Numbered from the stretch's first letter, positions 3,945 to 62,506 are shown. The stretch: 64,000 nucleotides of DNA from an uncultured Candidatus Saccharibacteria bacterium (GCA_964562905.1 CAZLVG010000001.1:2297-66296), one strand, 5' to 3'. Numbers and translations: made by a program. Notes: generated by a model from the letters alone, not told the origin.

Positions 3945-4031
3945 GCCGCGGTGACGGAATTGGCAGACGTGATGGCCTCAAAAGCCATTGGGAGCAATCC
4001 CGTGAGAGTTCGAGTCTCTCCCGCGGCACCA
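3945..4031 (+). tRNA. tRNA-Leu(CAA), class II with long variable arm, CCA encoded
   Basis: Acceptor stem GCCGCGG/CCGCGGC. Anticodon stem-loop ATGGC-CTCAAAA-GCCAT gives anticodon CAA. There is a long variable arm and a T-arm GAGAG-TTCGAGT-CTCTC. The 3' end is ACCA. Confidence 0.9.
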
Positions 4032-6658: not shown

Positions 6659-6787
6659 ATAGCTATCACATTACGCCATGCCGCTCTATACGCGTGACGG
6701 GTCCTTATCGCGGCCCTGCGCCCCCACGCCGCGGTGCAGTGGCTCCGGGGCGCGGGGGACCCCGCGCGCCGCGCCACCCGTTTATTT
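6659..6787. mobile_element. MITE-like repeat, copy 2 (single TIR, inverted relative to copy 1)
   Basis: It begins atagctatcacattacgccatgccgctct and ends gcgccacccgtttattt, which is the reverse complement of aaataaacgggtggcgc in copies 1 and 3. The core is GC-rich and palindromic. It lies in the convergent spacer between ugd and the nucleotidyltransferase. Confidence 0.55.
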
Positions 6788-19245: not shown

Positions 19246-19254
19246 GCCGACTGC

Positions 19255-20889: not shown

Positions 20890-21636
20890 CTCAACCCTAT
20901 CAAGCGGCACCCTTCTTAGTTCCGCTACTTTTCGAGCCACCAATTCCACATAGGCCGGCTCGTTGCGTTGCCCCCGATAAGGCTCCGGCGCCAGGAAAGG
21001 GCAGTCCGTTTCCAACAACATTCTGTCCAAAGGAACCACGCGGGTCGCCTCGGCCGCCTCCCCGGCATTCTTGAAAGTCACTACCCCGTTGAAAGCAAGA
21101 TACATGCCTAATTCAAGATACTCCTCCGCCTGCCGGCGGCTGCCGTTGAATGAGTGCATCACGCCTGGGGGCAGCTGGTCCTGGCTGTAAGAAGCCAACA
21201 GTTTGATGACTTCATCGTGCGCATCAATATCATCGCCGCTCCTTACATGAAAAACGATCGGCAGGCCATGCGATCGCGCCAGCGCCATAAAACCGGTCAG
21301 TGCCTTTAACTGCTTCGGCAAATTTCCCCCCCGATACAAGTCAATCCCTACCTCGCCCACTGCCTTAACCTCTTCTTCCCGCGCCAGCCCGCGCAGCCGC
21401 CTCCAGTCGCCCTCTTCCAAATCTTCCGCCTCGCTCGGGTGAACCCCCACCGTTGCCCCTACTCCCACACCCTGACCGCGGTACTGCCGCGCTAGACTAA
21501 TAGCCTTCTCGCTGCTCGCCACGCCCGTACCCACCTCAACCCAGCCTCCAACCCCGGCTTCCCGCGCCCTGCTAATAACCTCTTCCCTGTCACCGTCAAA
21601 CTGGGGAAAAGCGACGTGCGCGTGGCTGTCAATCAT
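20848..21636 (-). CDS. tatD: TatD family metal-dependent hydrolase
   Basis: Start MIDSHAHVAF, with the conserved His/Glu/Asp ligands of the TatD TIM-barrel family. Confidence 0.85.
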   Translation of the reverse strand: MIDSHAHVAFPQFDGDREEVISRAREAGVGGWVEVGTGVASSEKAISLARQYRGQGVGVGATVGVHPSEAEDLEEGDWRRLRGLAREEEVKAVGEVGIDLYRGGNLPKQLKALTGFMALARSHGLPIVFHVRSGDDIDAHDEVIKLLASYSQDQLPPGVMHSFNGSRRQAEEYLELGMYLAFNGVVTFKNAGEAAEATRVVPLDRMLLETDCPFLAPEPYRGQRNEPAYVELVARKVAELRRVPLDRVELATQTNTRQLFGI

Positions 21637-21637
21637 C

Positions 21638-21901
21638 CTAGCTCTCCCCCGCCCTTACTATCAGCCATAAATTCCTCACATACACCAATATACCCACACT
21701 CTGCCCCGCGATAAACACCGGATCCCTTATGTGTACAGCGTAAACCAGCAACCCCATGCCCCCCGCCAGGCTCAAATACCAAAAAGCTTTGGGTATCACC
21801 GACCGTCCCTGCTTCTCCGACACTACCCACTGCACAAAAAAACGCATAAAAAAGGCCGCCTGCGCCCCAAAACCCAGCCACAACCACAAATCTTCAGGCA
21901 T
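21638..21901 (-). CDS. Lipid-A-disaccharide synthase N-terminal domain (LAB_N) small membrane protein
   Basis: Signature W..LGF.AQA.FF.RF.VQW..SEK...S..P..FW..SL.G......Y......VF..GQ......Y.RN. This domain is typically coupled to polyprenyl-phosphate GT2 enzymes. Confidence 0.75.
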   Translation of the reverse strand: MPEDLWLWLGFGAQAAFFMRFFVQWVVSEKQGRSVIPKAFWYLSLAGGMGLLVYAVHIRDPVFIAGQSVGILVYVRNLWLIVRAGES

Positions 21902-22586
21902 ACTTTCCGAAGCCTTTCGCCCGGCGCACTTTAATCAAGCCCGCCGCCGCGCGCCATATCCTATTCCTGATACCGTATTTTGAACGCCCATGCCTCCTGG
22001 GAAAATGCCGCACCGTGTGCTGGGCAACCCTAAAACCAGCCGCTGCCATCAAGAAAGGGAAAAACCTGTGGGCCCCCTCGAAAGCATCAAGACAGGCTAC
22101 CACCTTCCGGTCAAATACCCGCAGCGGACAGCCAATGTCGCGAAAGTCGTCTTTCAAAACCAACCGCTGCGCCGCGTTAGCTATCCACGAAGACGCCTTC
22201 CTAACCAGTGAATCCCGCCTTCTTTCCCTCCACCCTACCACCGCGTCGTACCCCTCTTCCAGCCTTTTAAACATGGCCGGAATGGCAGCCACGTCGTCTT
22301 GGAGATCCCCATCCAAAGTAACTATTACCCTGCCCGCCGCCGCCCGAAAACCAGCCAACAAAGCCGCTGTCTTTTTCTTGTTATTCTCAAATCTAATGAC
22401 CCGCGCCGCGCCGTCTCCAATCTCATCCAAACGATTACAAGTGGCGTCACTCGACCCGTCATCCACAAAAATAACCTCGTACCCGCCGGCCAGCCCCATC
22501 CCGCTCAAAACTTTTTTTATCTGGTCAAAAAGCGGCTGCACCGAATCCTCCTCGTTATACACTGGAACCACCACGGAAATATCCAT
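21894..22586 (-). CDS. GT2 polyprenyl-phosphate glycosyltransferase (DPM1/GtrB-like)
   Basis: Start ISVVVPVYNEE and motif VIFVDDGSSD, typical of the GT-A fold dolichyl/undecaprenyl-phosphate sugar synthase family. Confidence 0.85.
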   Translation of the reverse strand: MDISVVVPVYNEEDSVQPLFDQIKKVLSGMGLAGGYEVIFVDDGSSDATCNRLDEIGDGAARVIRFENNKKKTAALLAGFRAAAGRVIVTLDGDLQDDVAAIPAMFKRLEEGYDAVVGWRERRRDSLVRKASSWIANAAQRLVLKDDFRDIGCPLRVFDRKVVACLDAFEGAHRFFPFLMAAAGFRVAQHTVRHFPRRHGRSKYGIRNRIWRAAAGLIKVRRAKGFGKYA

Positions 22587-38458: not shown

Positions 38459-38859
38459 GGGCGCGTTATGGCCTCGACGGGTTGTTGTTTACCCAATCTG
38501 CGTGCTGTGTGCTGTGAGCCGCTCACATAAATAAAAGGGTTCACCAAAGTTCAAGTGCGAACTTATTTAAGCGGGTGAAGACGGCTTTGGCCCCTTCATT
38601 TGCTACCGCTGCCGCTTAAACACCGGCAGCCATCGCCTCGCTCCTGCCGCCGGGCGCGAGCAGCGGTGCCAGATCAGGCGGATAGGGCGGTTTGGTTTGA
38701 GAGACAAGCTGCCTGACTTAAAGCACATTCTCCTCACGTGCGCCTGAAGTCTTTGCCGGTCTGTTGCTGCCCGCGTACGTAAAACTGCCAGACCGGCTAC
38801 GCGCGTAGATGATTGCGTATCCACATCCCGCACGCGAGTTCAACTCTCGCCGCGTCCAC
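38459..38859 (+). ncRNA. ssrA: tmRNA (ssrA)
   Basis: The 5' end GGGCGCGTTATGGCCTCGACGGG matches the tmRNA 5' consensus. The 3' tRNA-like end has T-arm GCGAG-TTCAACT-CTCGC. Acceptor 3' strand CGCGTCC pairs with 5' GGGCGCG, including the G3:U70 alanine identity pair. Discriminator A is followed by CC. An internal reading frame ends ...FATAAA-TAA, resembling a proteolysis tag. Confidence 0.85.
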
Positions 38860-39416
38860 CGACCTTCGCTCTCCATCTTTGGCGGAGGGTGCCGTCCACA
38901 GCCTCCGAGCTTTAGCAAGGAGCGACGGACGGCTGCAATAATTGCATGCGGCAATATGTTTATGTATTGCGGAATAACAGAAAAGATCAGCAAACAGATA
39001 GCCTGAATAAAAGGCTGCAGCAACATAACCAAGGTGCGTTCCAGCAACAACAGATAGTAGGCCTTGGTACGTCCATTGGTTCTGCGGATTCAGAACAAAG
39101 AAGGAAGCGCTAATCTTCGAAAAATATCTTAGGGGCGGTTCAGGCGCCATGTTCAGGTATAGGCATTTAGCGCCAAAACAGTAACCCCTAGGCTTCGCTT
39201 TCCGTAAGCCAGCGGCTAGTTTTGACAAATCCAGCCCTAAGCCGAATGAAGCTTAAGATGAACGATAACATAACGGAGATACTGGCATTTCCTGGAAAAG
39301 GAGAGTTTTTTCGCTTTGCCTCCCGGTCGGCTTTCCACAGCCTCCCGGCCGGCAGCGCGCGAGATTTTTCAAGCCCGCGACTATAATACCCAGGACATTT
39401 AAGTTACGGTTACTGT

Positions 39417-49629: not shown

Positions 49630-50655
49630 TTATTCTACCTGCCTAAGAGACAGGCCTAAGGCAGTGGAAAAGTGCACTGACTCTCGTAATGACAAGGGTA
49701 TCTTCTTCTTAGCCGATTTTAAAGGCAAGATATTGACCCAGGGATTGCCGCGCTGCACATGGACGTTATCAAAAAAGCGCAGAAAAACCCGATCTAGTCC
49801 AGGAAAGTTAGCGCCGCCGCCGGTTAACAATATCTCTCTGACCTCGTGCTGCTCGTCAATACTGTTATAAAACTCCACAATGCCCAATATCTCCATAACC
49901 AACCCTTCCTGCGCCGCTCGCATTCTCTCTGCCATCAAGGCTGCCTCTTCCTCCGGCAGCTCCTCTTCCCTAGGAAAAGACAACTCTTTAGCCTCGCGGG
50001 CAGGCAACGCTTTGAGGAGGTCCTGTCCCCCCCGCTGCAAACTAGCCGTAAACCGAATAGTCCCGTGGTCATGAATCACCACGTTGGTAGCTGTCCCCCC
50101 CAAATCAACCAGTAACAGGCCCTGATGAGCTTTAAGCTCTCGCGAAACCAAAGCCCGCACAATGGCCTGACTTTCCAGCTCCAGCGCCGCCACGTCCAGC
50201 TGTAACTCATACAGAACCTCTAACAGCGGATCTACCACCTTTTTCTGAGCTGCTCCCACCAACACCTCCTGCTTACCTTCAACCACTTTATGCCCCGACT
50301 TAACAGGCTGCCAGTCAACATATACGTTCTCCAGTCCAAAGGGAATATGCCGCGCCACTTCCCACGGCACTGCTTCTTCTATCTCCTCCGGGTCCATAAT
50401 GGGCAACTGCGTCACCCGCAAAAATGACTGCGTTTCCGGCACGGAAACCGTTACCGGATCGTCCCACGACAACAGCCGGCAATATTTCCTAGCCCGGGAC
50501 AGTGTCTTTTTTAAAATGGAAGGTTGTTGTATTACGCCCCGCTCAATAACTCCGTTAGGGATTGGTTGCCAGCAGTGGGCCAGCAGCCGACGTGGAGAAC
50601 TTTCCGACAGCTGAACCACCTTCACGGAACGGTCCGATATGTCTAGGCCTATCAT
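49630..50655 (-). CDS. pilM: PilM (set 1)
   Basis: Motifs MIGLDISDRSVKVVQL and LLVDLGGTATNVVIHDHG. Length 341 aa. Confidence 0.85.
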   Translation of the reverse strand: MIGLDISDRSVKVVQLSESSPRRLLAHCWQPIPNGVIERGVIQQPSILKKTLSRARKYCRLLSWDDPVTVSVPETQSFLRVTQLPIMDPEEIEEAVPWEVARHIPFGLENVYVDWQPVKSGHKVVEGKQEVLVGAAQKKVVDPLLEVLYELQLDVAALELESQAIVRALVSRELKAHQGLLLVDLGGTATNVVIHDHGTIRFTASLQRGGQDLLKALPAREAKELSFPREEELPEEEAALMAERMRAAQEGLVMEILGIVEFYNSIDEQHEVREILLTGGGANFPGLDRVFLRFFDNVHVQRGNPWVNILPLKSAKKKIPLSLRESVHFSTALGLSLRQVE

Positions 50656-52064
50656 TGCACCTCCTCCCAGGAAATAAACTTATACTGCCCGGTGGTGGGG
50701 AAATAAGGCGGGGGTAAGTATAGCATGTTGGGATCGTACTCGGAGACCCCTTCCTGGTAGCCGCTGACTACCGTGCCGTCAGAGTCAACCCAACTGGTGA
50801 CGGGCACCAAGTTACTGGCTATCATGCCGTAGCGGGTGATCCTGGTTTTCAGTCGGTGCTCTCCATAATAATAGTACCGGCGGCCGAACCTCCCTTTCTG
50901 GGCTATATAAGCACCGTCCAGCTGCAGGTAATCGGGAGCGGCGGAATAAGGAATGAGCACGTGGCGCTGGGCTATAGCTCCCAGCGCGCGCGAGCCGTCC
51001 TTCACCCCGCCATAGCTGATGTCACCATTAACAATAATGTCCACGTTAGTGCCGGGCGCGTCGGGAAATCTGCCCGCGGCCACCGTAACGCGGTCCCTTA
51101 CTTCTCCTTCCATCCACAGCGTATCTTCCACATATATCACGCCCCCGGACGGCACCAACTGTGTTCCCAAAAAGGTTTCCTGGCCGATATCGTGCGAAGT
51201 CCATTGCCAGCCCGTCTCCGGAAACCACGACCATATGTTTGACCCTTTACTGTTCACTTCGTACATGGAGTAAGTGTTGTCCGCGTTAAAAACCAGATGG
51301 TAGCCATAATTACCTGAAGTACCGTAATAAGTGCCGGCCTGCTGCGCCAGGTCTTTCATGTCCAGCAGGTCCAGCGTCAACGAAGCGTAATCCACCACCG
51401 GCACCGGAAATTCCCATAAATCCCGCATCTCCCCGCTTCCCCACACCCCCGGCTTCTCTTCGTAGTCGCACCCGTGATGCGGCTGGCAAATGTAAGTTTC
51501 TTTAGCGCTGGCCATTAGGCTCTCCGAATAACCGTCCATCCTTATCCCTCCGTTAGCGTGTACCGGACCGTTTATCTCGCCGCCGTACCACACGTCACTG
51601 TTGGTTATAGACGAGTACCGCGCCAGCGACTCTTTGCCATACCGTGCCTTTAGGGTAACTTCCCGGCTTGGCTGGCTGGACGTGGTGCCTACTGACTGGA
51701 TCATAACCACGTCACTCCCGGACAGTGACTGAAACGTAACCTCAAAGGAGCCCAGCACCCCCGCGTATTGATCTTCCACTTCCCGTGTTTCGGAGGAAAA
51801 ATCTTCCGTGCTGTGCGCCAGCCGCCAGCGGCCGTAGTTGAGACCGGCTTCCGCGATCTGAAAAGCCAGCTCGTCGCCGGACTGCAGTACGGCCTCGTGG
51901 TAAGTGCGGCTGACTAAGCCCGCCAGGCCCGTAAAAATGACCACGAACATAACTACGAATACCAGTGTCATTATCAGCACGCCGCCTCGCTGGCGGCTAA
52001 CGCCGCCGGAAGCTCCTGCGCCAAAGCAATCCCTCAAGAAGGACATGAATATATAATAACACAC
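50652..52064 (-). CDS. PilX-N-like minor pilin / pilus-associated protein
   Basis: N-terminus QRGGVLIMTLVFVVMFVVIFTGLAGL followed by AFQIAEAGLNYGRW (PilX_N-like). The C-terminal domain is large and beta-rich. Confidence 0.6.
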   Translation of the reverse strand: MCYYIFMSFLRDCFGAGASGGVSRQRGGVLIMTLVFVVMFVVIFTGLAGLVSRTYHEAVLQSGDELAFQIAEAGLNYGRWRLAHSTEDFSSETREVEDQYAGVLGSFEVTFQSLSGSDVVMIQSVGTTSSQPSREVTLKARYGKESLARYSSITNSDVWYGGEINGPVHANGGIRMDGYSESLMASAKETYICQPHHGCDYEEKPGVWGSGEMRDLWEFPVPVVDYASLTLDLLDMKDLAQQAGTYYGTSGNYGYHLVFNADNTYSMYEVNSKGSNIWSWFPETGWQWTSHDIGQETFLGTQLVPSGGVIYVEDTLWMEGEVRDRVTVAAGRFPDAPGTNVDIIVNGDISYGGVKDGSRALGAIAQRHVLIPYSAAPDYLQLDGAYIAQKGRFGRRYYYYGEHRLKTRITRYGMIASNLVPVTSWVDSDGTVVSGYQEGVSEYDPNMLYLPPPYFPTTGQYKFISWEEVQ

Positions 52065-52086: not shown

Positions 52087-53547
52087 TTACCGCCACGTGG
52101 AAAACCAGAACAGTTTTTCGTACAAATCATGCGGTAAAAAGAAGCCGTACGTTAAGGGACTGAACACTAAAAACATAGCCGCCGCCGCTCCCAGCAGTAC
52201 ATAATAATAGGGGGGCTGCTTCATCAAGCTCCCTTTTCTGAAAAACCCGGTTCCGTCCAACCAGAGCAGACCCGCCAGTAAAGCGAACAAAAGAGGCGTA
52301 AGGTAATGATAAAGAAACAGCGCCCGCGGTACGCGCGCCAAAGGTACATAAGAGATAATATAACCGGCCAGCGGAATGAAAACGGCTTTATTATAGCCGT
52401 CAGAACCTAACCTTTTCAGAGATTCCAATTTATAAGCCGCGAAAAAATCTCTTATTTGTTTACTCCGCCTGTACAGGAATGAATAACACATGCCAAGCAG
52501 TGAAATAATCAACAGAGCGCCTATGCTCCACCAGACAACCAGATTACCCAGAAAATAAATGGAGGCTACGCGGCCTTCACCGCCGCTTTGCGTCCAGTAA
52601 AAAACGGGGGTGCCGACATACGGCCAACTCCACCAGCGACTGGCATCCGGATGGGTAGCTTCAAGGTTGTAGTTAGCGTCAAACATGATCCGATGTAATT
52701 CTATCGTTTCTTTGACAAAAGTTACGGGCAGCCAACCTTCGTCCCACTGCGGTACCCGCCAGGCATCTCCCGGTCCGGACTGTGTGAGCAAAGCAAAATG
52801 CAGCGCCCAGCCTGCCCCGTAGACAGTCAGGCCGCTGGCCGCGATTAGCAGAGCAACTGCCAGATAACGAGCTAACATCTTGTAAGATGAGACATTAAGC
52901 ACGCGCCAGGCCAGTATTACCGCCAGCACACCCGCGGCCACCAAGCCGGTAAACTTCGCGCCTACGGCCAGTCCGGCCAAGGCTCCTGCCGCGCACGCGC
53001 GCCACGCCCATCTCTGCCAGTGAAAAGGACTTTTCCTGAATGATTTTTCCATCCCCAAGTAGGCGCTTAGACAACCAAAAACAGCTACCAGCAGCACGCC
53101 GTCCAGGGATATTACGCGATTTTGCACGGTCAGAGCGTTATCAAATATAACCATCATGCTCCCTAAAAAAGCTGCCGCCTGTCCGGCTCCCAACTGTCTT
53201 AACAATATAAAAATCACGAGCGGCAGCAACATTCCCATAAGCGCCGGTACGGCCCGCAGTCCGATAGGAGACACAGCACCGTACCTCTGCCCTATATTGG
53301 AAAACGACAAGTCTCCCTCATAACCAGCCAGTTTAGCGGCGCCCGCCACCAGCAGCTTGGCGTGGGGCGGATGGATATCAAAAAATCTCTCTCCCGTACA
53401 GCAGTAGGCCGTAACGAACTTTCCAAAATGAACCTCGTCAAAAACCACTTGCCGCGGATAGCTTAGCCACATAAATTGAGTGGCCGCGGCCAGCGCGAGG
53501 ATAACCAACAATAATTTGAACCGCTGCGACATAAGTACAGATATCAC
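52087..53547 (-). CDS. Protein O-mannosyltransferase family (GT39/PMT) GT-C glycosyltransferase
   Basis: Strong PMT signature VFDEVHFGKFVTAYCCTGERFFDIHPPHAKLL (loop-1 DE motif). About 11 TM helices. Confidence 0.8.
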   Translation of the reverse strand: MISVLMSQRFKLLLVILALAAATQFMWLSYPRQVVFDEVHFGKFVTAYCCTGERFFDIHPPHAKLLVAGAAKLAGYEGDLSFSNIGQRYGAVSPIGLRAVPALMGMLLPLVIFILLRQLGAGQAAAFLGSMMVIFDNALTVQNRVISLDGVLLVAVFGCLSAYLGMEKSFRKSPFHWQRWAWRACAAGALAGLAVGAKFTGLVAAGVLAVILAWRVLNVSSYKMLARYLAVALLIAASGLTVYGAGWALHFALLTQSGPGDAWRVPQWDEGWLPVTFVKETIELHRIMFDANYNLEATHPDASRWWSWPYVGTPVFYWTQSGGEGRVASIYFLGNLVVWWSIGALLIISLLGMCYSFLYRRSKQIRDFFAAYKLESLKRLGSDGYNKAVFIPLAGYIISYVPLARVPRALFLYHYLTPLLFALLAGLLWLDGTGFFRKGSLMKQPPYYYVLLGAAAAMFLVFSPLTYGFFLPHDLYEKLFWFSTWR

Positions 53548-53655
53548 ATTATGCCATGCCGCTCTTCAAAATAAACGGGTGGCGCGGGGTGGAGGGTGCA
53601 GGGCCGTGCCAGGGCCCGTTATAAGTATAGCGGCATGGCATAATGTTACCTCTGT
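53539..53655. mobile_element. MITE-like repeat, copy 3 (complete, both TIRs)
   Basis: The perfect TIR tcacattatgccatgccgct ... agcggcatggcataatgt is embedded in longer imperfect terminal similarity (agatatcacattatgcc... / ...ggcataatgttacctctgt). The element is near-identical to the reverse complement of the 60541-60656 copy. Confidence 0.75.
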
Positions 53656-53821
53656 AGATGTTTATTTTATGCGACAGTATTATTTTCCTCCACTGTCGTC
53701 AACGGCCATGTCTGTGCTCTGCGCTAATTAATCTAACTACGTCAAGCGCTAGCCGCTGGCTGTCCGGGCTAGACCGTCGGTACCGGCTGGCAACCGCCGC
53801 CGTAACGACCGCCGGCTGAAA

Positions 53822-55639
53822 TCAAGGCGAGGGCGAAGGGCTGGGAGAGGGCGAAGGGCTGGGAGAGGTGTCATCGTCAACTATAATTACCCCGGCCGGC
53901 GGGCCTAAAGACACGCTGTGGGCGTGGCTAAAGGCGCGGGCCAACGCCGCCGCGAAGTCTTCGTCCCCCTCCACCTGATCGTCGCCCTCCACCGCCGCCG
54001 GCACCGTTTGACTTAAGGAACCGCCCGGTTCAAAGGTGAGCGTGATGTCACTGCCGCTGTAATCGCCATCCGACCGCGCGGCCGACCCGTCCTGAAATTC
54101 CAGCCGGACGGTCAACGTATCATCCACCGATGACGACAAAGACACCTTAAAAGCAATCGGCGTGCTGTCGGAGGCATCCCCTTCAGTCACCGGCAGCGGG
54201 TTGGACAATACTACGTCAGGATCGGCTGGGTCCACGTTCTGAACGGTCACCGCTACCGGAGAGAGAACTTCTTCCGCCGCGCAAGTGCCGGCCGGACCCT
54301 GGCAGCTGCCGCCGACCACGCTGCAGCCGGAGGGACCTTCAGCGACCACTTGAGTCTCGCAGCCGCTCTCCCATCCCCCCCAGTACCAGCTGCAGCCGGC
54401 GTCATCGGCGCAAATAGTGCGGCAGGTGCCGCCAGCGCCGCACATTTCACCCGCGGGACAGTCAGTGTCCTGTGAGCAAGCCGCGTCGCTTGATGATACA
54501 TGGCACTCTTCACCGTTAGCGCACCAGCTCCTGTCCGAATCCACCAGCGGGTCGGGTTCCGGACACGCCATCGGGCCACATTCCAGTCCGGGGCAGGCCC
54601 CGCCGGCGTCATATCCCCCCCGGCAGGAAGCCGACGCGCCTCCGCCGGACGCCGCCCGGCAATCAGGCGTCCACGTGGTCCGGCACTGGCTGACTACCCG
54701 CCAGCGGCCGCAGCCAGTAAAGGTGCCGGAATCTATATATTGGCAGTCAGTAACACAGCTGCCCGGGCAGTCCAGCGAGGTGGCACAGCTGTCCTGTTCG
54801 CAAAACATAGCAGTATCGTCGGCCGGTCCTCCTTCGTCATAGGAAGCGAAAGTAAGCTCGTACCAGTCATTTTCGTAACAGTAACCGTTAAAACAGGCGC
54901 TGCCGGCCGGACAAGTCCAGTCCGGACAGCTAGCCGTGGGGCAAGTACCGCTAAGCGGGCACAGCGCTCCCGTACCGCACCACGTACCGGGCCGGCAAGA
55001 CTCCCCTTGGACCGGCAAATCCGGCGCCGTCACTCCGCAAAAGCCGGTCAGGGGGCACAGCTGCCCGTCGTCGCACAGCAGGCCCGGCGTGCAAGCGGTA
55101 CCCGAAGTCGGCGGCCCCGGTCCCGGCGGAGGGTCGCACACCCCCGTGGAAACGTCGCAATCGCGCCCGTCGGGACATGAAACACAGGAGGCGGGCCGTC
55201 TTTTCTCCGTCACGTAAGTTACGGTCCGCACGTCACGCGCCTCTCCTCCGGCTGTGGTCCAGGCCACTTCTATCTCAACCTTTTTAAAATCCTCCGCTTC
55301 ATCAGCAGTCAGCGGGTCATCCACATAGGCAATACTGGTTGTCATCTGATACTGTTCATTATCCCGGCTAACCGTCTGCGGAGCCGCGTCTATCACTCCC
55401 TCCGGCTCTGCCGGGTCCGGGGACGTATAGCCCACGTCGCTGTAAGGCAAGGAGTCGATGTACCCTTTCTGCTCGTTCAAAATGGACAGCGCCGACAACT
55501 GGCGCTCCGCTCCGGTAAGCAGGCGCGTAGTCAGAACGGAAAGTCCCAGCACACTGACGCTCACAAACCCGATAATAAAGACTGACACCAACACGCCGAC
55601 AAGGCTCTGTCCTCTACAAACTTCCCCTGTGTCCTTCAT
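53822..55639 (-). CDS. Cys-rich cell-surface protein with C-terminal Calx-beta domain and (SP)n tail; pilus-associated adhesin candidate
   Basis: N-terminal hydrophobic anchor. About 60 Cys in repeated CxxGxxC modules. Calx-beta motif DYSGSDITLTFEPGGSLSQTVPAAVEGDDQVEGDEDF. The C-terminus is SPSPSPSPSPSP. It is co-oriented directly upstream of the PMT gene. Confidence 0.6.
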   Translation of the reverse strand: MKDTGEVCRGQSLVGVLVSVFIIGFVSVSVLGLSVLTTRLLTGAERQLSALSILNEQKGYIDSLPYSDVGYTSPDPAEPEGVIDAAPQTVSRDNEQYQMTTSIAYVDDPLTADEAEDFKKVEIEVAWTTAGGEARDVRTVTYVTEKRRPASCVSCPDGRDCDVSTGVCDPPPGPGPPTSGTACTPGLLCDDGQLCPLTGFCGVTAPDLPVQGESCRPGTWCGTGALCPLSGTCPTASCPDWTCPAGSACFNGYCYENDWYELTFASYDEGGPADDTAMFCEQDSCATSLDCPGSCVTDCQYIDSGTFTGCGRWRVVSQCRTTWTPDCRAASGGGASASCRGGYDAGGACPGLECGPMACPEPDPLVDSDRSWCANGEECHVSSSDAACSQDTDCPAGEMCGAGGTCRTICADDAGCSWYWGGWESGCETQVVAEGPSGCSVVGGSCQGPAGTCAAEEVLSPVAVTVQNVDPADPDVVLSNPLPVTEGDASDSTPIAFKVSLSSSVDDTLTVRLEFQDGSAARSDGDYSGSDITLTFEPGGSLSQTVPAAVEGDDQVEGDEDFAAALARAFSHAHSVSLGPPAGVIIVDDDTSPSPSPSPSPSPSP

Positions 55640-55650
55640 ATGCGGCTCGG

Positions 55651-56325
55651 TTATGGAAAGGCCGGAGCGGCCGGCGGCAGCGGAGGAGCGCTGCCGGCCG
55701 CGGTATCTCTTAACCGTCCCCGCCGCGGCGTGACCTGGGTTTTGATAACCGCCGCCGGCGGGTCCTGGTCCTCGTCGGCATCAACTAAAAAGGTAATCTC
55801 TACCCGATCAACCGCCTTTAAGTCGTAGGCGGGATCCACTGCCTGCGCGCCGGCCCCGCCCAGCGAATAATAAACCAACAGCGGCTTGGCTTGCGCCGCG
55901 TTCCTGAAGCCGCGGGCCAGCACCTGCGGCGACTCGGTCCCCGTGCCTCCCATTTCCGTCACTCGGCGCATAAGTTTATCGCCGTCCACCCAGTACTGCA
56001 CCATCTCCGGCTCACTGTCGTCGTCGGCGTTGGTGTATATCACTATCTCTCCCGGGCCGGCGCGCCTTAACCACCTTTCCGCCTCACCGCTGAATTGGCC
56101 GTCATCGTCAAAATCCACGTTGCCGGCGTTGCGGATAGCGTCGCTCATCCTGTCCATTTCCGCCTTGGCCTCTTCCACTATCCTGCCCTGCTCTATCTGA
56201 AAGCGCGAGATACCCGCCACCCTCACCGCCAGCGCGAACAAGGCCGTCAACACCAGCGCGCCCGCCGCCGCCACCAGCAATACCTCAATAAAGGTCAGGC
56301 CTCTTTTGTCATTCTCAATCATCAT
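55651..56325 (-). CDS. Type IV pilin-like protein (prepilin N-terminal cleavage/methylation domain)
   Basis: Class III signal KRGLTFIEVLLVAAAGALVL (G|LTFIE). Confidence 0.8.
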   Translation of the reverse strand: MMIENDKRGLTFIEVLLVAAAGALVLTALFALAVRVAGISRFQIEQGRIVEEAKAEMDRMSDAIRNAGNVDFDDDGQFSGEAERWLRRAGPGEIVIYTNADDDSEPEMVQYWVDGDKLMRRVTEMGGTGTESPQVLARGFRNAAQAKPLLVYYSLGGAGAQAVDPAYDLKAVDRVEITFLVDADEDQDPPAAVIKTQVTPRRGRLRDTAAGSAPPLPPAAPAFP

Positions 56326-57172
56326 CCAGAATTCTCACCTGGCGCGTGCTAACGGTCAGGTTAGCGTTAACGGGATCGCTAAGCACGGCCTGGAAGCTTT
56401 CATTCCCCTCCGGCTCGGTATCAGCCACGATATCCACCATAATCATCTTTGACGTCTGGCCGGGATCAAAGACCACCGTCTCCGTTTTGGACACATAATC
56501 CTGGCCGGCCGTCGCCGAATCGGGCTGGGTGGCAAAATCAACCGTCACCCGCAGGGGATACTCATGGGACAGAACCACGGTCAGCGGAGCCTGATTATCG
56601 TCGGGCGGGTCGCCTTCATTAACGCTTAACGGCGAAGACGGATCAAATTTAACGTTCGGCAACGAGGTGGTCAGGCCCAGCGCCCCGCATTCCACGTCCA
56701 GTTCATGATCCCAGGACCTGACATAATACCGCGTTCCGCCTACCGCCCCGGTCATGTCCGCGGCTTCGGCCGTAATAAGCTGGCATCTTCGCTCCACCGT
56801 CAAATCATGGCCCAGCGAGGACACCTTAAGCGGAACCCCCGCTCCGCCAGGCTGAAACGACAGCTCGGCAGCGCCGATAATATTACCGCTACTGTCTGAC
56901 ACCGCCCGCACCAGCGAACCTTCACTTATCAGGCCGGTCGGCGCGTAGGTCCCGCTATTTAAAAGAAACAAAGTGTACTCTACTCCCGCTTCCGCTATGT
57001 GAAAGGCTTGTTCTTCCTGCTCCTGGTCGACTACCTGGTGCGACTGCCTGACCGCGAAGTTCAGCCAGGCCGTTACCACCACCAGCAATATCACCAAGAA
57101 CATCAACGTTATGGTCATCACCGCTCCCCGCTGGCCGCGCCGCGCTCGGGCCCGTCTTCCGTAGTCCAGCAT
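56315..57172 (-). CDS. PilX-N-like pilin with Calx-beta domain
   Basis: N-terminus QRGAVMTITLMFLVILLVV...AFHIAEAGVEY and C-terminal Calx-beta-like motif VDFATQPDSATAGQDYVSKTETVVFDPGQTSKMIMVDIVADTEPEGNESFQ. Confidence 0.6.
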   Translation of the reverse strand: MLDYGRRARARRGQRGAVMTITLMFLVILLVVVTAWLNFAVRQSHQVVDQEQEEQAFHIAEAGVEYTLFLLNSGTYAPTGLISEGSLVRAVSDSSGNIIGAAELSFQPGGAGVPLKVSSLGHDLTVERRCQLITAEAADMTGAVGGTRYYVRSWDHELDVECGALGLTTSLPNVKFDPSSPLSVNEGDPPDDNQAPLTVVLSHEYPLRVTVDFATQPDSATAGQDYVSKTETVVFDPGQTSKMIMVDIVADTEPEGNESFQAVLSDPVNANLTVSTRQVRILDDD

Positions 57173-57177
57173 AGTGT

Positions 57178-57798
57178 TTACTCCTCTATTACCTCTCCTA
57201 AATTAGTTTTTAGGTTGCGCAGCTGCACCTGCGACATTACTTCCACCGGATCCGGTTCCTGATTAGGATCAACATCTATAATAAGGCGAAATTGCAGGTA
57301 TTTTACCTCCGTTACGTCCGAAGACGATAAAGGCTCGCTGTCGGCCGGGTAATCGCCGGAATAATAAATAAAAATGGGCGTAGCCCCGTTGCGCACGGCG
57401 CCCACCGCCGTGGATACCTCTTCCGTATTTTCATCATAAACTAGAGGATCTCCCCCTGGTACGATCACCCCTCGCTTAAGGTCAGTCCCCTCCAGCTCGT
57501 AACGTATTCTTTCAGTAAGTCCGTCCTGGTCCACGTCGGAATAAAAAACTATCTTTTGCGGCTGTGCCGCGGCCAGCGGATAAGCGCCCGTGTCGGACAC
57601 GCGCAGCTCCCTCAACGACTTAGACAGCCGCTTTAAATGTACCCTGGCCGACTCCGTGGAACTGGCTTGCATAAACACTAAACGCGACAGAGGATATCCC
57701 GCGGCCATTAAGCGCAACAGCGCTACCAGAATAACAGAGCTGAAAAAAGCCACCAGTATCACTTCAATAAACGTGACTCCTGGTGATGGCCGGCTCAT
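57178..57798 (-). CDS. Type IV pilin-like protein
   Basis: Class III signal SPGVTFIEVILVAFFSSVILVALL. Confidence 0.8.
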   Translation of the reverse strand: MSRPSPGVTFIEVILVAFFSSVILVALLRLMAAGYPLSRLVFMQASSTESARVHLKRLSKSLRELRVSDTGAYPLAAAQPQKIVFYSDVDQDGLTERIRYELEGTDLKRGVIVPGGDPLVYDENTEEVSTAVGAVRNGATPIFIYYSGDYPADSEPLSSSDVTEVKYLQFRLIIDVDPNQEPDPVEVMSQVQLRNLKTNLGEVIEE

Positions 57799-59309
57799 TG
57801 CTGCAAGGTCATTTCAATCCTGGCTCGGGTGCTTCCTTCCGACACCGTGACTGTCTGCTGGCCTTCTTCAAACCCGGGCGCGCTCACCGTCAGCTCGTAA
57901 TCTCCCCCCGACGGCAAATCGCTGAACAGCACCTGTCCCACCGCGCCCGTGCCCAGTTCCTCGTCAATGCCCTGGCCTACCAGCCGGACGGTGGCGTTGT
58001 CCACCGGCTGCCCCTCGGGATCAACCACCGTCACGTGCAGCGAATAAGGGGTGTAGGGCACCAACGTTACCGTCATGTCCAGGTTGTCACCAGGATTGAC
58101 GTTCAAAGGCAGCACGAAGCTGGTCTCTTTTATATCGTAACCCGTCGCCGCCCCTGGGATGGTAAAGTCATACTGATCCCACACTAAGTCATCATAACCG
58201 GCCTGTCCCGCGTCGTCCGTGCTGCCGTCATGGTCCAGTACGTACACGTTATCTCCCTCGCCGTCCACCCCTATGGTTTTAGTGCCCCGCAAATTGTAGT
58301 CCAGGCTGACCGGCGTTCCGTCTTCTTCCCGCGTTGTTATAGAAAGGCCGGCCAGGCTATCTATGGCAAAGGTTTTACTGGTTACCTCGCCAATTATGAT
58401 GGACAGGTGGGCGTGGTCCGCGTCGGGCACGAAATCGACCGTGGTATCGTAAGTCTGCTCGGACGTGTAGCCGGGCGTGCTTACCGCCAGCTCATAACTG
58501 TCAGAACTTTCCGGCAGTCCCGGCAGCACCAGCCTGCCCTCGCTGTTGGTCTGGGTGTTTATATCAATGGGCGGGTCCACCGTCTCGTTCACTAGCCGCA
58601 CATCGGCTCCTTCTACCCCCTCGGCGGCGGCGTTCAAAGCCTGGAAATCCAAGGTGCCGCCCTCTTCTCCTCCCTCCATGCCCGGCGGCGCCACGTAGGT
58701 TACCAGCAAGACCGATCCTGTCTTGTTAGGCTGCTGCCAGGTAACTTCCACCCGGACCTGTTTGTAATCGGCGTTATACTCGTCTCCGGGCGGCGTGCCT
58801 TCACCGCCCTCACCGCACGCTCCCGTCACGTCACCGTGCGCCAGGTGAGCGTCCAGCGCCGAATCGGGCACCTGCAGCGTTCTCTCCGATGACGTGCCCG
58901 GCTTGTGGCAAATAGTTACCGTCTCTTCTCCCTCGCTGCTGCCGGCCGCTTGTCCGTCAAAGTAGTCGTCCACGTACCTGATGTCGGTATACACCGTGTA
59001 AGTTACGCCGCCGCGCTCCACCTGCTCTTCTTGTGGTATGCTGCCGCTGGGCACCCCGCCTTCCGTTCCCACCTCCGCGTAGGGAAGATTGCGCACCATC
59101 TCCATTCTCTCATTAGCCAGCGCCACCGCCATTATCCGTCGCTCTCCTTCCTGTACCGTGCGCAGATTAAGCACGAACAGTCCAAATATGCCCGTCAGGG
59201 TGGTACCAATAATAAAAGCGGCGATGAGCAATTCAATCAGCGTGAATCCCCTATCATTTGGCAGCTTGATAAAATAGCTTATTAACTTTGATAGCGGTTT
59301 AAATGACAT
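57795..59309 (-). CDS. Large pilin-like protein with CarboxypepD_reg-like domains
   Basis: Prepilin signal DRGFTLIELLIAAFIIGTTL. The 450-aa C-terminal region contains CarboxypepD_reg-like repeats (ATVRLVGQGIDEELGTGAVGQVLFSDLPSGGDYELTVSAPGFE). Confidence 0.75.
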   Translation of the reverse strand: MSFKPLSKLISYFIKLPNDRGFTLIELLIAAFIIGTTLTGIFGLFVLNLRTVQEGERRIMAVALANERMEMVRNLPYAEVGTEGGVPSGSIPQEEQVERGGVTYTVYTDIRYVDDYFDGQAAGSSEGEETVTICHKPGTSSERTLQVPDSALDAHLAHGDVTGACGEGGEGTPPGDEYNADYKQVRVEVTWQQPNKTGSVLLVTYVAPPGMEGGEEGGTLDFQALNAAAEGVEGADVRLVNETVDPPIDINTQTNSEGRLVLPGLPESSDSYELAVSTPGYTSEQTYDTTVDFVPDADHAHLSIIIGEVTSKTFAIDSLAGLSITTREEDGTPVSLDYNLRGTKTIGVDGEGDNVYVLDHDGSTDDAGQAGYDDLVWDQYDFTIPGAATGYDIKETSFVLPLNVNPGDNLDMTVTLVPYTPYSLHVTVVDPEGQPVDNATVRLVGQGIDEELGTGAVGQVLFSDLPSGGDYELTVSAPGFEEGQQTVTVSEGSTRARIEMTLQQ

Positions 59310-60516
59310 TGACCAGGTTGTAGATGGGTGAAATAACGGATACCGCCAGCGCTCCCACCGCCAGACCTATGAGCACCATCAGAATGGGCTCCATAATGGA
59401 AGTCAGGTTCTTCATGGTCTGGTCAACTTCACCTTCATAAAACTGCGCCGTCTCTTTCAATACTTGGTCCAACGCGCCCGTCTCTTCTCCTACCCTTATT
59501 ATATTAACGACAATCGGAGGAAACAGACGGCCGAAACCTTCCAGAAATTCACTTAATTCCTTGCCTCCCTTTACGTGCTCGCGCGCCTGCGCCAGCACGC
59601 GCGCGTAGCTAGGGTGGGGAGTGTTGGATCCCAGAATATCCAGAGCCTTAATGTAAGACACGCCGCTGGACAGCAGCGCGCCCAAGTTACGAGAAAAACG
59701 GGCTAAGTTTATCTCTTGCATGATAGGGCCAATCACCGGCGTATAGAGCAGCCCGTGCATGACAGCGGCCTTAACAGACTGCAGACGCAAAAGACCCCAG
59801 GCCGCGGCCACCAGAACAAACGCGCCTACGAAGAAAAGCAGCCAGTGAGCTTGAAAAGCGTCGCTGATGGCTATCAATATCCTGGTGGGCAGCGGCAGCT
59901 CCACGTCAAAACCTTCAAAGACCTCCACCAGCTTGGGCACCACGAAGAACATCATGGCCACCCCTACGGCAATAAGGGACAAAATAATCACTATGGGATA
60001 CATAAGGCCTCCCTTGACCGCCCGGCCCAGCTCATATTCTTTATGCAGCTGCTCCGCCAATACTTCTAAAGATTCTTGCAGCCGGCCGGTCGTCTCCCCT
60101 ACTCGCACAAAACTGACAAACAGCGGCGGAAACACATTAGGGAAAACCGACATCCCCTCGGCCAGCGTTTTGCCGCGGTCTATGTCACTGTGTAATGACT
60201 TCAAAGCCGTTCTCATGGCCCTACTACGGGTTTGCTCCTGTAAGGTCACCAGCGATCTTTTGACATCCAAGCCAGAACGCAACATGAGCGCGAAGTAGCG
60301 GGCGAACAGCGCGCGCTCCAGGGAGGATGCCCGGTTAAATAAGCCGGAAAAAACAGCCGCTCCCGGCAGCCGCTGTGCCTTTCTGCTGTAACTTGTCAGC
60401 AGTATACCCTCGCCTAACAGGTTCTGTCCCAAAACGGAGTGGTCGGGCGCCTCGCGCATCCCCCGCACTATCTCACCCGTCTTCTCCCGCCGTCCTTCAA
60501 AGGAATATATAGGCAT
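59299..60516 (-). CDS. pilC: Type IV pilus inner-membrane platform protein PilC (GspF family)
   Basis: Two GspF repeats, each with 3 TM. Motifs LEQ.G...AL..M.YP..I. Confidence 0.9.
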   Translation of the reverse strand: MPIYSFEGRREKTGEIVRGMREAPDHSVLGQNLLGEGILLTSYSRKAQRLPGAAVFSGLFNRASSLERALFARYFALMLRSGLDVKRSLVTLQEQTRSRAMRTALKSLHSDIDRGKTLAEGMSVFPNVFPPLFVSFVRVGETTGRLQESLEVLAEQLHKEYELGRAVKGGLMYPIVIILSLIAVGVAMMFFVVPKLVEVFEGFDVELPLPTRILIAISDAFQAHWLLFFVGAFVLVAAAWGLLRLQSVKAAVMHGLLYTPVIGPIMQEINLARFSRNLGALLSSGVSYIKALDILGSNTPHPSYARVLAQAREHVKGGKELSEFLEGFGRLFPPIVVNIIRVGEETGALDQVLKETAQFYEGEVDQTMKNLTSIMEPILMVLIGLAVGALAVSVISPIYNLVNVI

Positions 60517-60540: not shown

Positions 60541-60656
60541 ACAGAGGTAACATTATGCCATGCCACTATACTTGTGACGGGCTCTGGCGCGGCCCATGCA
60601 CCCCCGCGCCGCGCCACCCGTTTATTTAAAGAGTGGCATGGCATAATGTGATATCT
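60541..60656. mobile_element. MITE-like repeat, copy 4 (complete, both TIRs; inverted relative to copy 3)
   Basis: acagaggtaacattatgccatgcc...ggcatggcataatgtgatatct. It is about 90% identical to the reverse complement of copy 3, including the GC-rich core and the aaataaacgggtggcgc box. Confidence 0.75.
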
Positions 60657-60760: not shown

Positions 60761-62506
60761 TCATTCCCTGGCTACGCGCAACACTTCTTCTAAGCTGGTT
60801 ACTCCGCTGGCCACTTTCATAAAACCGTCCTCCACCATGCTTACCATGTTCTGTCCTTTGCGCGCCGCCTCTTCCAGCTGTCCAGAAGTAGTCTGCGGCT
60901 TTATTATCTGCTGCATTTCGGACGTTATTTCCATAACCTCGTAAATACCGATTCGCCCCTTGTAGCCGTCGTGACACCGCTGGCAGCCGCCCGCTTCGCC
61001 CGTCTTATAAAGCGGCATCTCCGTCCAGTCGGCATTGCTTTCAACTACTCCTTCCTTTCGTAAAACATTCAATACGCTGTCCATGTCAAACTCGTCCTGC
61101 AAATCTTTAACCAAAGCCGGCGTGAACTTCGACCGCCGCCGGCACTTGTCGCACAACCGTCTCACCAGGCGCTGGGCCAGAACTAGGTTTAAGGTGGAAG
61201 CCAGCAGAAAAGCTTCCACTTTCATGTCCCGCAACCGCGGCAAAGCGCCGGCCGCGCTGTTAGTGTGCAGCGTAGACAGCACTAGGTGCCCCGTCAGCGC
61301 CGCGTTAACGGCCAGCGAAGCCGTCTCCTCGTCCCGGATCTCACCTACCATAATAATGTCCGGGTCCTGCCGTACCAGCGACCGCAGGCCGTTGGCAAAC
61401 GTAAGCCCGATGCGGGAACGCACCTGGGTCTGATTAATGCGGGGCATACGGTATTCTATCGGGTCTTCAATAGTGCTGATGTTCACTTCCGAAGTGTTTA
61501 CCTCCTTCATAACCGCGTACAGCGTGGTGGTTTTGCCGGAACCGGTAGGACCTGTGACCAGTATCATACCGTGCGGGTGGTGAATGGCCTGGCGCAGTAC
61601 CTTTAACTGTTTTTTGTTTATTCCCAGGTCATCCAATCCCAGCCCCTGCCCTGATTCGTCCAACAGGCGCATTACTATTTTTTCACCGTCATAGACCGGC
61701 AGGGTGGACACGCGGAAGGCCACTTTGTAATTGTCGGACTCTATTTTAAAACGGCCGTCCTGCGGCAAACGGTGTTCATCAATTTTCAAATTAGCCAGCA
61801 CCTTCACCCTGGCCACCAGGCCGGGCAACACCGTCTTAGGCAGTATCAGCATATCCCGCAGAATCCCGTCTATACGGTAGCGAACGATAACTTTCTTCTC
61901 GGCGGGCTCTATGTGAATATCCGAGGCGCCTTCCAGAATGGCGTGCTTCAAAATTGCCTGGGCGATACGTATAACCGGCAGGTCGTCAGCCGATTCAACT
62001 TGCTCCCCCTGCTCCACTACATTTTTAAGTTCTTCGCCGACTACGTCTGAAAGCTCCGCCTTCAAGCTCTCTTGGTATTGGTTCAGCACGTTCTGTATGG
62101 AGGCAACGCTGGCCTGAGCCACCTCCACGGGCATGTCCACCTTTTTGCGCAAGAACTCCACCATTTGCCGATCGCTGGGGCTGGCCATGGCCACCCGCAG
62201 CCCTTTATCCGTCTGCTCGTAAGCTATGATCATGTGGCCGCGCGCCGTGGATTCAGGAAGAACGTTAAGCACTTCCCGCGGAACTCTCTTATCTCTCAAA
62301 TCAACGTAAGGCACCTGCGCCGCCTCCGCCTGAACTTTGGCCAAGTCTTCGCCGTCCACCAGGCCGCTGTCCACTAAAGCAGCCTGCCAGCCGGCACCGG
62401 CCTCCAGCTGCCGCTTTATCTCCTCCAGCTCTACCTCTTTCTTGAACAAATCTCTGCTAGCCAGCGTTTGCAGGATATTACCAATGGCGACAGTATCCTC
62501 TACCAT
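60761..62506 (-). CDS. pilB: Type IV pilus assembly ATPase PilB (GspE family)
   Basis: Walker A motif LVTGPTGSGKTTTLYA, Asp/His boxes, and tetracysteine CDKC...CQRC. An N-terminal GSPII_E_N domain is present. Confidence 0.95.
   Translation of the reverse strand: MVEDTVAIGNILQTLASRDLFKKEVELEEIKRQLEAGAGWQAALVDSGLVDGEDLAKVQAEAAQVPYVDLRDKRVPREVLNVLPESTARGHMIIAYEQTDKGLRVAMASPSDRQMVEFLRKKVDMPVEVAQASVASIQNVLNQYQESLKAELSDVVGEELKNVVEQGEQVESADDLPVIRIAQAILKHAILEGASDIHIEPAEKKVIVRYRIDGILRDMLILPKTVLPGLVARVKVLANLKIDEHRLPQDGRFKIESDNYKVAFRVSTLPVYDGEKIVMRLLDESGQGLGLDDLGINKKQLKVLRQAIHHPHGMILVTGPTGSGKTTTLYAVMKEVNTSEVNISTIEDPIEYRMPRINQTQVRSRIGLTFANGLRSLVRQDPDIIMVGEIRDEETASLAVNAALTGHLVLSTLHTNSAAGALPRLRDMKVEAFLLASTLNLVLAQRLVRRLCDKCRRRSKFTPALVKDLQDEFDMDSVLNVLRKEGVVESNADWTEMPLYKTGEAGGCQRCHDGYKGRIGIYEVMEITSEMQQIIKPQTTSGQLEEAARKGQNMVSMVEDGFMKVASGVTSLEEVLRVARE

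Follow-up and report, generated by a model that had tools for sequence, protein, structure and literature searches.

A GT39-family protein O-mannosyltransferase homologue encoded within a type IV pilus operon of the Candidate Phyla Radiation

We analysed a 64,000-nucleotide (nt) stretch of DNA from an uncultured Candidatus Saccharibacteria bacterium (GCA_964562905.1, CAZLVG010000001.1:2297-66296), hereafter the window, and found that a type IV pilus operon on its minus strand includes a gene for a protein O-mannosyltransferase (PMT) homologue of glycosyltransferase (GT) family 39. The gene holds the same place in the pilus operons of related Candidate Phyla Radiation (CPR) bacteria. In our assessment, the chances are evenly balanced that it encodes an active GT39 enzyme with type IV pilus proteins among its selected substrates, the glycosylation itself being a prediction. 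Host contact in the CPR/Patescibacteria, possibly a large share of bacterial diversity, is predicted to be made mainly through type IV pili. A study of Saccharibacteria pili gave O-glycosylation sites as predictions only and called for experiments (PMC11623550), and no pilus glycosylation enzyme in CPR bacteria is described in the searchable literature. The source bacterium is placed here among ultrasmall, Andersenbacteria-like CPR after the names borne by relatives.

Read from a GTG codon, the PMT gene is an open reading frame (ORF) of 486 amino acids (aa) at 52087-53547 on the minus strand, and its translation includes VVFDEVHFGKF...FFDIHPPHAKLL. The likely start is the ATG at 53532 because an identical database protein (P0001) has 481 aa, and residues are numbered accordingly. 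An earlier note on this DNA had recognised a PMT signature in the frame, which is borne out by family profiles, catalytic motifs, and structural matches. The N-terminal domain matches Pfam PMT (PF02366) with an E-value of 2.9e-39 (135.5 bits, gathering cutoff 22.7) over profile positions 3-242 of 245, and the C-terminal module with four transmembrane helices matches the full profile of PMT_4TMC (PF16192) at 1.2e-34 (120 bits, cutoff 32.4). Sequence matches in the PDB include Chaetomium Pmt4 (3.6e-52), ScPmt4 (3e-50), and ScPmt1 (9e-41), as well as fungal Pmt2. The DE pair of the first external loop, D32/E33, aligns with D77/E78 of ScPmt1, and the R-x2-F pair of external loop 5, R403/F406, aligns with R649/F652. 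Mutagenesis of MtPMT showed that the Asp of the DE motif and the R-x2-[Y/F] pair are essential, and the latter motif touches both the donor phosphate and the acceptor (PMC12331936). D32, E33, D144, R403, and F406 are invariant in all 29 members of the clade to which the window PMT belongs, and the DE motif is present in 51 of 52 other PMT homologues, the last being gapped at the site. In the fungal alignments, the invariant D144 falls on the Asp of the "LILLDA" segment; the second essential Asp of MtPMT is D176, the MtPMT sequence itself being outside the alignment.

The AlphaFold2 model of the PMT (pLDDT 79.9, pTM 0.87) retrieved exclusively Pmt4, Pmt1, and Pmt2 structures as its top seven Foldseek matches in the PDB (E-values 2.6e-19 to 3.6e-11, query TM-scores 0.75-0.79), with the best match to 9i5k (2.6e-19, TM-score 0.79). 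AglB, ArnT, and Emb were far weaker, with E-values of at least 1e-5 and TM-scores of at most 0.45. No MIR domain was matched in the PMT by Pfam; the fungal alignments jump from chain residue ~326/327 to ~544/545, and the protein has 481 aa versus 760-817 aa in fungal PMTs. Against the actinobacterial Pmt equivalog of NCBIfam (NF058602), it scores 26.7 bits versus a cutoff of 800, and with the C-terminal part only. The profile, residue, and model comparisons together describe a bona fide, apparently active, MIR-less GT39 enzyme that is not the actinobacterial orthologue.

Every gene between 44 and 62.5 kb lies on the minus strand, and the operon reads pilB-pilC-p504-p206-p285-p224-p605-repeat element-PMT-p470-pilMNO-113-aa ORF-pilMNO (Table 1). 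The genes p504, p206, and p470 belong to the conserved core, and p285, p224, and p605 form a variable cassette. The assignment as a type IV pilus operon follows from matches to T2SSE, T2SSF, and PilM_2 above their cutoffs, together with N_methyl domains and GFTLIE motifs; the PilN and PilO profile matches are weak and below cutoff. PilQ is not expected in CPR (PMC6744442). The earlier note had placed the PMT gene inside a pilus locus, and pilB, pilC, prepilins, and two pilM genes indeed lie on its two sides, with four ORFs bearing prepilin-type N-termini flanking it. The PMT gene is presumably co-transcribed with p605 and the pilus genes. Promoter and terminator scans around it gave matches no more frequent than in shuffled sequence. 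The prepilin motif of p504 is RGFTLIELL, and its orthologues occur in loci with PMT (PMT-positive) and in loci lacking it (PMT-negative). The p470 protein found no match among Pfam, NCBIfam, or PDB profiles; its alignment (A3) shows 61% mean column identity with an invariant PPP-[FY]FP...SW C-terminus, and more than 500 relatives in metagenomes mark it as widespread in CPR pilus operons. The tandem pilMNO modules are kept in the same order in three related loci (L003, L004, and L005), so the operon encodes duplicate alignment subcomplexes.

We scanned for PMT genes with one genome per species, retained 80 PMT loci, and searched around each by tblastn with the pilus proteins of the window. PMT homologues at 47-64% identity (L001, L003, L004, and L005) occupy the same co-oriented position in a pilus operon, and the order in the relatives is pilB-pilC-p504-p206-[0-4 variable genes]-PMT-p470-pilMNO-pilMNO. 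Pilus genes surround the PMT gene in ~27 of the 80 loci, from Andersenbacteria and similarly placed metagenome-assembled genomes, with PMT identities of 39-64%. A neighbour-joining tree unites the pilus-embedded PMTs in a single clade of 29 sequences, two of which are without pilus neighbours: one on a 2.2-kb contig, and L030. The metagenome scan, made with the p470 alignment, counted informative loci. The PMT gene lies directly upstream of close p470 relatives (at least 56% identity) in 9/9 such loci, and is absent beside distant p470 relatives (35-45% identity, other CPR lineages) in 41/41. The adjacency of PMT and pilin genes in relatives, on whose absence the earlier note had said its proposal would founder, is thus conserved in ~27 species-level genomes and in all nine of these metagenome loci. 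In PMT-negative operons, the distance from the end of p206 to the start of p470 has a median of 24 nt and is below 300 nt in 52/54, and in the loci of the PMT clade with both core genes identified, this gap is never below 1346 nt, the length of a PMT gene. These patterns are most simply explained if PMT was inserted once into a widespread CPR pilus operon, between p206 and p470, and retained thereafter.

A chance adjacency in this genome alone, brought about by a mobile element or a rearrangement, might be considered in view of the palindromic repeat that lies directly 5' of the PMT gene, with another in the pilB-pilC gap. These repeats belong to a family of ~120-nt palindromic intergenic elements with 16-nt arms ATTATGCCATGCCGCT, found at 1094-1109, 6670-6685, 53548-53644, and 60552-60647; the arms give six matches at four sites in the window versus 0.04 matches expected, and two of the four copies are inside the pilus operon. 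The copy near the PMT gene has perfect 16-nt inverted arms at 53548-53563 and 53629-53644, and its RNA fold reaches -51 kcal/mol (z = -7.2). The earlier note had seen a miniature inverted-repeat transposable element (MITE) between the two genes; a repeated palindromic element is there, and the MITE label is reasonable and unproven. Orthologous loci lack the element, and their p605 orthologue and PMT are 4-8 nt apart. The repeat was a later insertion into an existing operon, because the orthologous loci without it share the gene order and have these short gaps. The same gene order without the repeat, and its recurrence in the species-level genomes and metagenome loci counted above, refute a chance adjacency, to which we give a negligible probability. 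The strong hairpin could modulate mRNA stability or read-through, as judged from the predicted fold.

The sister group of the pilus-embedded clade in the neighbour-joining tree, which carries no support values, is non-CPR and not the other CPR PMTs. Its neighbours in the tree are PMTs of Proteobacteria, Acidobacteriota, and Myxococcota at 40-50% identity; the other CPR PMTs share 30-36%. This grouping suggests that the PMT of the pilus clade was acquired by horizontal transfer, to the extent that a tree without support values can speak to it. Around the PMTs of ~30 non-CPR bacteria, no comparable pilus neighbourhood was found; the sole match was in L040, to a 36%-identical PilB encoded on the other strand at a distance of ~6 kb. 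In deep-branching CPR clades, the PMT gene is mostly away from pilus genes. A looser proximity recurs in some of their loci. L079 (7892-12726) contains a multi-pass membrane protein, PMT, a T2SSE ATPase, and PilC in that order; in L072 (3024-6043), p504-p206-p470-prepilin is followed by a divergently oriented gene whose secreted product has a (PT/PA)n linker of ~50 aa, and then by PMT; and L080 (2339-6549) and L083 (9989-13651) have the order PMT-[GT2]-RuvX-DedA/VTT-PilM. This recurring but loose proximity in other CPR lineages favours a functional link between PMT and pili.

Some of these neighbours might instead point to a non-protein acceptor, such as an envelope polymer or lipid that the pilus crosses or binds, or to a membrane-scaffold role in the pilus machine. 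The PMT of L079 is preceded by another multi-pass membrane protein, and those of L080 and L083 stand with a GT2 and a DedA/VTT lipid-carrier-related protein. Moreover, GT-C relatives of the PMT_2/ArnT-like and DUF2079 types act on lipids or glycans, and the window has genes of these types at 17836-20889. The window PMT, however, matches both PMT-specific Pfam domains, its best structural matches are exclusively protein O-mannosyltransferases, its DE motif and acceptor-side R-x2-F motif are invariant, and all characterised GT39 members are established to modify proteins (PMC12331936; PMC6151902). We regard a non-protein role as highly improbable.

Preferring protein acceptors, we propose that a GT39 gene entered the CPR pilus operon (pilB-pilC-p504-p206-p470-pilMNO x2) of the clade ancestor between p206 and p470 and has been kept there since. 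The PMT would be a GT-C enzyme integral to the membrane, its active site facing outward, and would take a hexose from a polyprenyl-phosphate-sugar donor made by a GT2 such as that at 21894-22586. Its acceptors would be Ser/Thr residues of pilin-type proteins, in segments that are exposed and either Pro-rich or disordered, and the transfer would take place while the pilins are still anchored in the membrane by the N-terminal helix, before their entry into the pilus, analogous to TfpW, TfpO, and PglL. The likely targets would be the large hypervariable, often Cys-rich pilin-fusion proteins encoded just upstream, including p605 with its (SP)7 tract, and core pilins are possible. The comparisons show the enzyme family, the intact catalytic motifs, the place in the operon, its conservation throughout the lineage, and the single insertion; that pilus proteins are the acceptors, which sugar would be transferred, and the co-transcription are inferred.

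The candidate donor enzyme is a 230-aa GT2 whose best PDB relatives are ArnC (1e-29), GtrB-like sll0501, and an archaeal dolichol-phosphate mannose (DPM) synthase (1.6e-17). The earlier note had spoken of an upstream DPM1-like GT2. A GT2 of the polyprenyl-phosphate type does exist in the window; it is ~30 kb from the PMT gene and not adjacent, and no NCBIfam equivalog cutoff was reached from which the sugar of this GT2 or of a nucleotidyltransferase could be read. It closes a second glycosylation cluster (17836-22586), made up of genes for a PMT_2-family GT-C (17836-19245), a membrane protein of the DUF2079 type (19255-20889), TatD, and the GT2. The GT2 may equally serve the adjoining PMT_2 and DUF2079 genes of the GT-C type.

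The cassette protein encoded directly upstream of the PMT gene on the same strand is p605, and the earlier description of a 605-aa Cys-rich protein with a Ser/Pro tail at this position is correct, except that the tail sequence given was one repeat short of the actual (SP)7. It is a large pilin-fusion protein and not a generic surface protein, because its N-terminal 135 residues are homologous to p504; residues 9-143 are 36% identical to the p504 pilin domain (E-value 3e-14). The Calx-beta domain occupies residues 496-590 (9e-12). Across five orthologues, 40 columns of its 41 Cys residues are invariant, and the Cys-rich region spans ~300 aa, consistent with an extracellular disulfide-rich module. 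In the AlphaFold2 model (pLDDT 49.9), the Calx-beta domain alone is confident and the tail is unstructured. The cassette proteins also cross-match the core: the p285 N-terminus finds p470 in tblastn, p224 finds p206 homologues, and p605 finds p504. From these matches, p285-p224-p605 resembles a second, diverged minor-pilin set to which a Calx-beta domain (p285 and p605) and a Cys-rich module (p605) were added. Each cassette gene located between p206 and PMT encodes a prepilin-type N-terminus, and many of the proteins are of very large size and rich in Cys (98 at most). Tracts of the (P[ST])n type occur in pilus-locus proteins of 5/16 PMT-positive loci versus 0/29 PMT-negative loci, including the p206 orthologue itself in L027 and L029; the PMT-positive loci are a single clade, so that such comparisons do not count independent events.

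Besides this lack of independence, a number of results weigh against pilus proteins as the selected acceptors. A collection of 5.8 billion proteins holds just four p605 homologues, all at 58-62% identity and confined to the closest relatives, and 3/5 orthologues carry the Ser/Pro tail; PMT nevertheless lies directly 3' of one that lacks it, at a distance of 8 nt. The gene directly 5' of PMT varies, and it is p206, with no cassette, in at least five loci (L009, L014, L028, L034, and L036). In five loci lacking the cassette, none of the pilus-locus proteins has an S/T/P tract. The tailed p605, which the earlier note had proposed as an acceptor, is consequently not the conserved PMT partner, and we discarded the (SP)n tail as a conserved acceptor or as the reason for the linkage; it remains one plausible site. 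A Pro-rich "YPxDxxNPL[PT]T" loop in p206 was likewise considered as a PMT-specific acceptor motif and rejected, as it also occurs in PMT-negative lineages, and no acceptor-like motif specific to the core pilins of PMT-positive loci was found. The S+T content is slightly higher in p206 and p470 of PMT-positive loci (Mann-Whitney U test, p ~5e-5) and no different in p504; the measure is confounded by phylogeny and GC content and was left unused. No major pilin gene was detected in the window or near PMT in 30 related loci, where only large or minor-type prepilins occur; a small prepilin near PMT was seen only in L072, unrelated to the main clade. In L030 (9995-12151), the PMT gene is at the same chromosomal site and the pilus genes are gone from it: non-pilus genes lie upstream, and directly downstream are the CTP-transferase-like and PrsW genes that elsewhere follow the pilus block. 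The preserved flank indicates loss or relocation of the pilus genes from this site, with PMT remaining in place. In addition, two surface proteins with S/P/T tracts encoded outside the pilus locus in the same window, of 1115 and 473 aa, are candidate alternative substrates.

The last two observations bear on the main rival explanation, namely that the PMT is a general secretome O-glycosyltransferase that modifies many secreted or surface proteins with Ser/Thr/Pro-rich linkers, in the manner of actinobacterial Pmt and the GT39 enzyme of Caldicellulosiruptor bescii, with the pilus proteins as at most incidental substrates and the operon position as a matter of co-expression or a frozen accident in a small genome dense with operons. 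It would explain why PMT persists in cassette-less loci, and it agrees with the single GT39 locus per genome among the 80 loci retained from the scan. The closest non-CPR relatives are located in general glycosylation neighbourhoods with GT2, DUF2079, and methyltransferase genes and not in pilus loci, and known bacterial GT39 enzymes are broad-spectrum (PMC6151902; PMC11727336). Such a generalist accounts poorly, however, for a position within the operon that was held while PMT diverged to ~40% identity and the cassettes turned over, for the recurrence of PMT-pilus proximity in three other CPR lineages, and for the tight spacing between PMT and pilin-type genes, with an ancestral p605-PMT gap of 4-8 nt. 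We consider a general secretome enzyme possible, though on the unlikely side; were it true, the finding would be an ordinary one.

A stricter form of the preferred explanation, in which pilus proteins are among the selected substrates, is a dedicated pilus O-glycosylation module: a eukaryote-like PMT would have been captured once by the pilus operon of episymbiotic CPR bacteria, possibly via transfer from non-CPR bacteria, and would decorate hypervariable, disulfide-rich pilin-fusion adhesins and/or core pilins. The modification could tune host recognition or shield the pili from proteases and phages. We hold this form to be doubtful; if true, no earlier pilin glycosylation system would be based on GT39, and a protein-glycosylation pathway would for the first time be linked to the organelle with which CPR bacteria attach to hosts. 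Even the broader proposal would widen GT39 biology, hitherto that of Actinobacteria, Firmicutes, and eukaryotes, and pilin O-glycosylation would gain a third enzyme family besides PglL/TfpO and TfpW. A PMT fixed in the pilus operon of a lineage offers a concrete candidate enzyme with comparison sets at hand, both PMT-positive versus PMT-negative and cassette-bearing versus cassette-less.

Table 1. Features of the window discussed in the text, with positions counted from its first nucleotide.
Feature	Position	Strand	Description and evidence
PMT	52087..53532	-	GT39 protein O-mannosyltransferase homologue, MIR-less; 481 aa; Pfam PMT + PMT_4TMC, PDB matches, AlphaFold2 model
p605	53822..55639	-	605-aa large pilin-like protein; PilV-like N-terminal domain, 41-Cys region, Calx-beta, (SP)7 tail
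(SP)7 tract of p605	53825..53866	-	codons of the C-terminal tract; translation
p224	55651..56325	-	pilin-like, second cassette gene; motif RGLTFIEVLL; N_methyl 0.0033, below cutoff
p285	56315..57172	-	first gene of the variable cassette; PilX-like hydrophobic N-terminus + Calx-beta (4.5e-16)
p206	57178..57798	-	core minor pilin; prepilin-type N-terminus GVTFIEV
p504	57795..59309	-	PilV-like minor pilin with CarboxypepD_reg domains, core gene; N_methyl 1.6e-6, CarboxypepD_reg 3.2e-22, TIGR02523 pilV 3.5e-5
pilC	59299..60516	-	platform protein; Pfam T2SSF 7.6e-56
pilB	60761..62506	-	pilB-type assembly ATPase, first gene of the operon; Pfam T2SSE 7.2e-135, MshEN 2.1e-14
p470	50652..52064	-	conserved pilus-operon protein, PilX-like N-terminal helix; C-terminus PPPYFPTxGxYxFISWEE; usual gene 3' of PMT
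Two tandem pilM-pilN-pilO modules	50655-48390 and 48140-45901	-	113-aa ORF between them; PilM_2 5.7e-31 and 7.6e-33
Palindromic element near PMT	53548..53644		repetitive extragenic palindromic (REP)/MITE-like; in the 274-nt p605-PMT gap, 16 nt 5' of the PMT ATG
Repeat copy in the pilB-pilC gap	60552..60647		16-nt arms, 1 mismatch each; aligned with other copies
GT2	21894..22586	-	230 aa, candidate polyprenyl-phosphate-sugar synthase; Pfam Glycos_transf_2 8e-29
1115-aa surface protein	9087-12434		FG-GAP/PKD/fn3/CarboxypepD_reg; linker ASPAASPSPSGPRLSPSPTP
473-aa protein	7569-8990		S/P/T tract; C-terminal end SPLPSATPTPSG

Elsewhere in the window, we located a tmRNA gene at 38459-38861 (97.5 bits) and a tRNA-Leu(CAA) gene at 3945-4031. 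Many aminoacyl-tRNA synthetases are also encoded (Arg, Ile, Leu, and one class II enzyme), which is typical of a small CPR genome.

Several features of the window PMT are those of the actinobacterial enzymes Rv1002c/MtPMT, Streptomyces coelicolor Pmt, and Corynebacterium Pmt, namely the PMT and PMT_4TMC domains without MIR, the DE motif in loop 1 and R-x2-[FY] in loop 5, with a second invariant Asp as a putative further match, along with a predicted GT-C fold and an expected polyprenyl-phosphate-sugar donor. Known bacterial PMTs prefer Pro-rich Ser/Thr segments of exported proteins (PMC12331936). The actinobacterial Pmt enzymes are general secretome modifiers with no pilus link, whereas the window PMT is encoded in a CPR type IV pilus operon. 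As a PMT gene lying among those of its substrates, Cbes_1864 of C. bescii comes closest as a precedent: this GT39 enzyme is non-actinobacterial, as here, and its locus also encodes its substrates, multidomain secreted proteins with alternating Pro/Thr(Ser) linkers (PMC6151902). However, those substrates are cellulases, the host is a Firmicute, and the activity was shown genetically, that of the window PMT being a prediction. The eukaryotic PMT1/2/4 enzymes (fungal Pmt, human POMT1/2) provide the best sequence and structure matches and have catalytic residues in common with the window PMT, but they possess a luminal MIR beta-trefoil between the membrane modules and function as obligate dimers in the endoplasmic reticulum membrane.

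Among the enzymes of pilin O-glycosylation, PglL/TfpO (PilO) are Wzy_C-family enzymes; they transfer oligosaccharides that are preassembled and linked to undecaprenyl-PP en bloc to the membrane-anchored pilin at the periplasmic face, and the TfpO gene is a neighbour of pilA. The earlier note had taken this type for the whole of known pilin glycosylation, thereby overlooking TfpW of Pseudomonas aeruginosa (Pa5196/PA7, group IV pilin), a GT-C enzyme encoded beside pilA that O-arabinosylates pilin Ser/Thr with a donor derived from a polyprenyl-phosphate-monosaccharide (10.1101/2020.04.19.049825). Functionally, TfpW plays the role proposed for the window PMT, that of a GT-C membrane enzyme in a pilin gene cluster, and the encoding in a pilus locus is conserved across the relatives of the window PMT. 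TfpW differs in that it belongs to an Emb-like GT-C family with a DDX motif and a C-terminal tetratricopeptide repeat region, not to GT39, and in that it places D-Araf oligomers on the major pilin of a diderm proteobacterium. The Pfam search of the window PMT returned PMT-family domains only, with no relation to the Wzy_C enzymes or, at the level of Pfam, to TfpW. The searchable literature contains no report linking a PMT to type IV pili, in agreement with the view that pilin glycosylation by a PMT homologue is undescribed. O-glycosylation enzymes encoded in pilin loci, a GT-C enzyme among them in TfpW, and bacterial GT39 enzymes acting on Pro/Ser/Thr-rich segments were thus known already; what the gene comparisons add is a solid association of GT39 with the type IV pilus.

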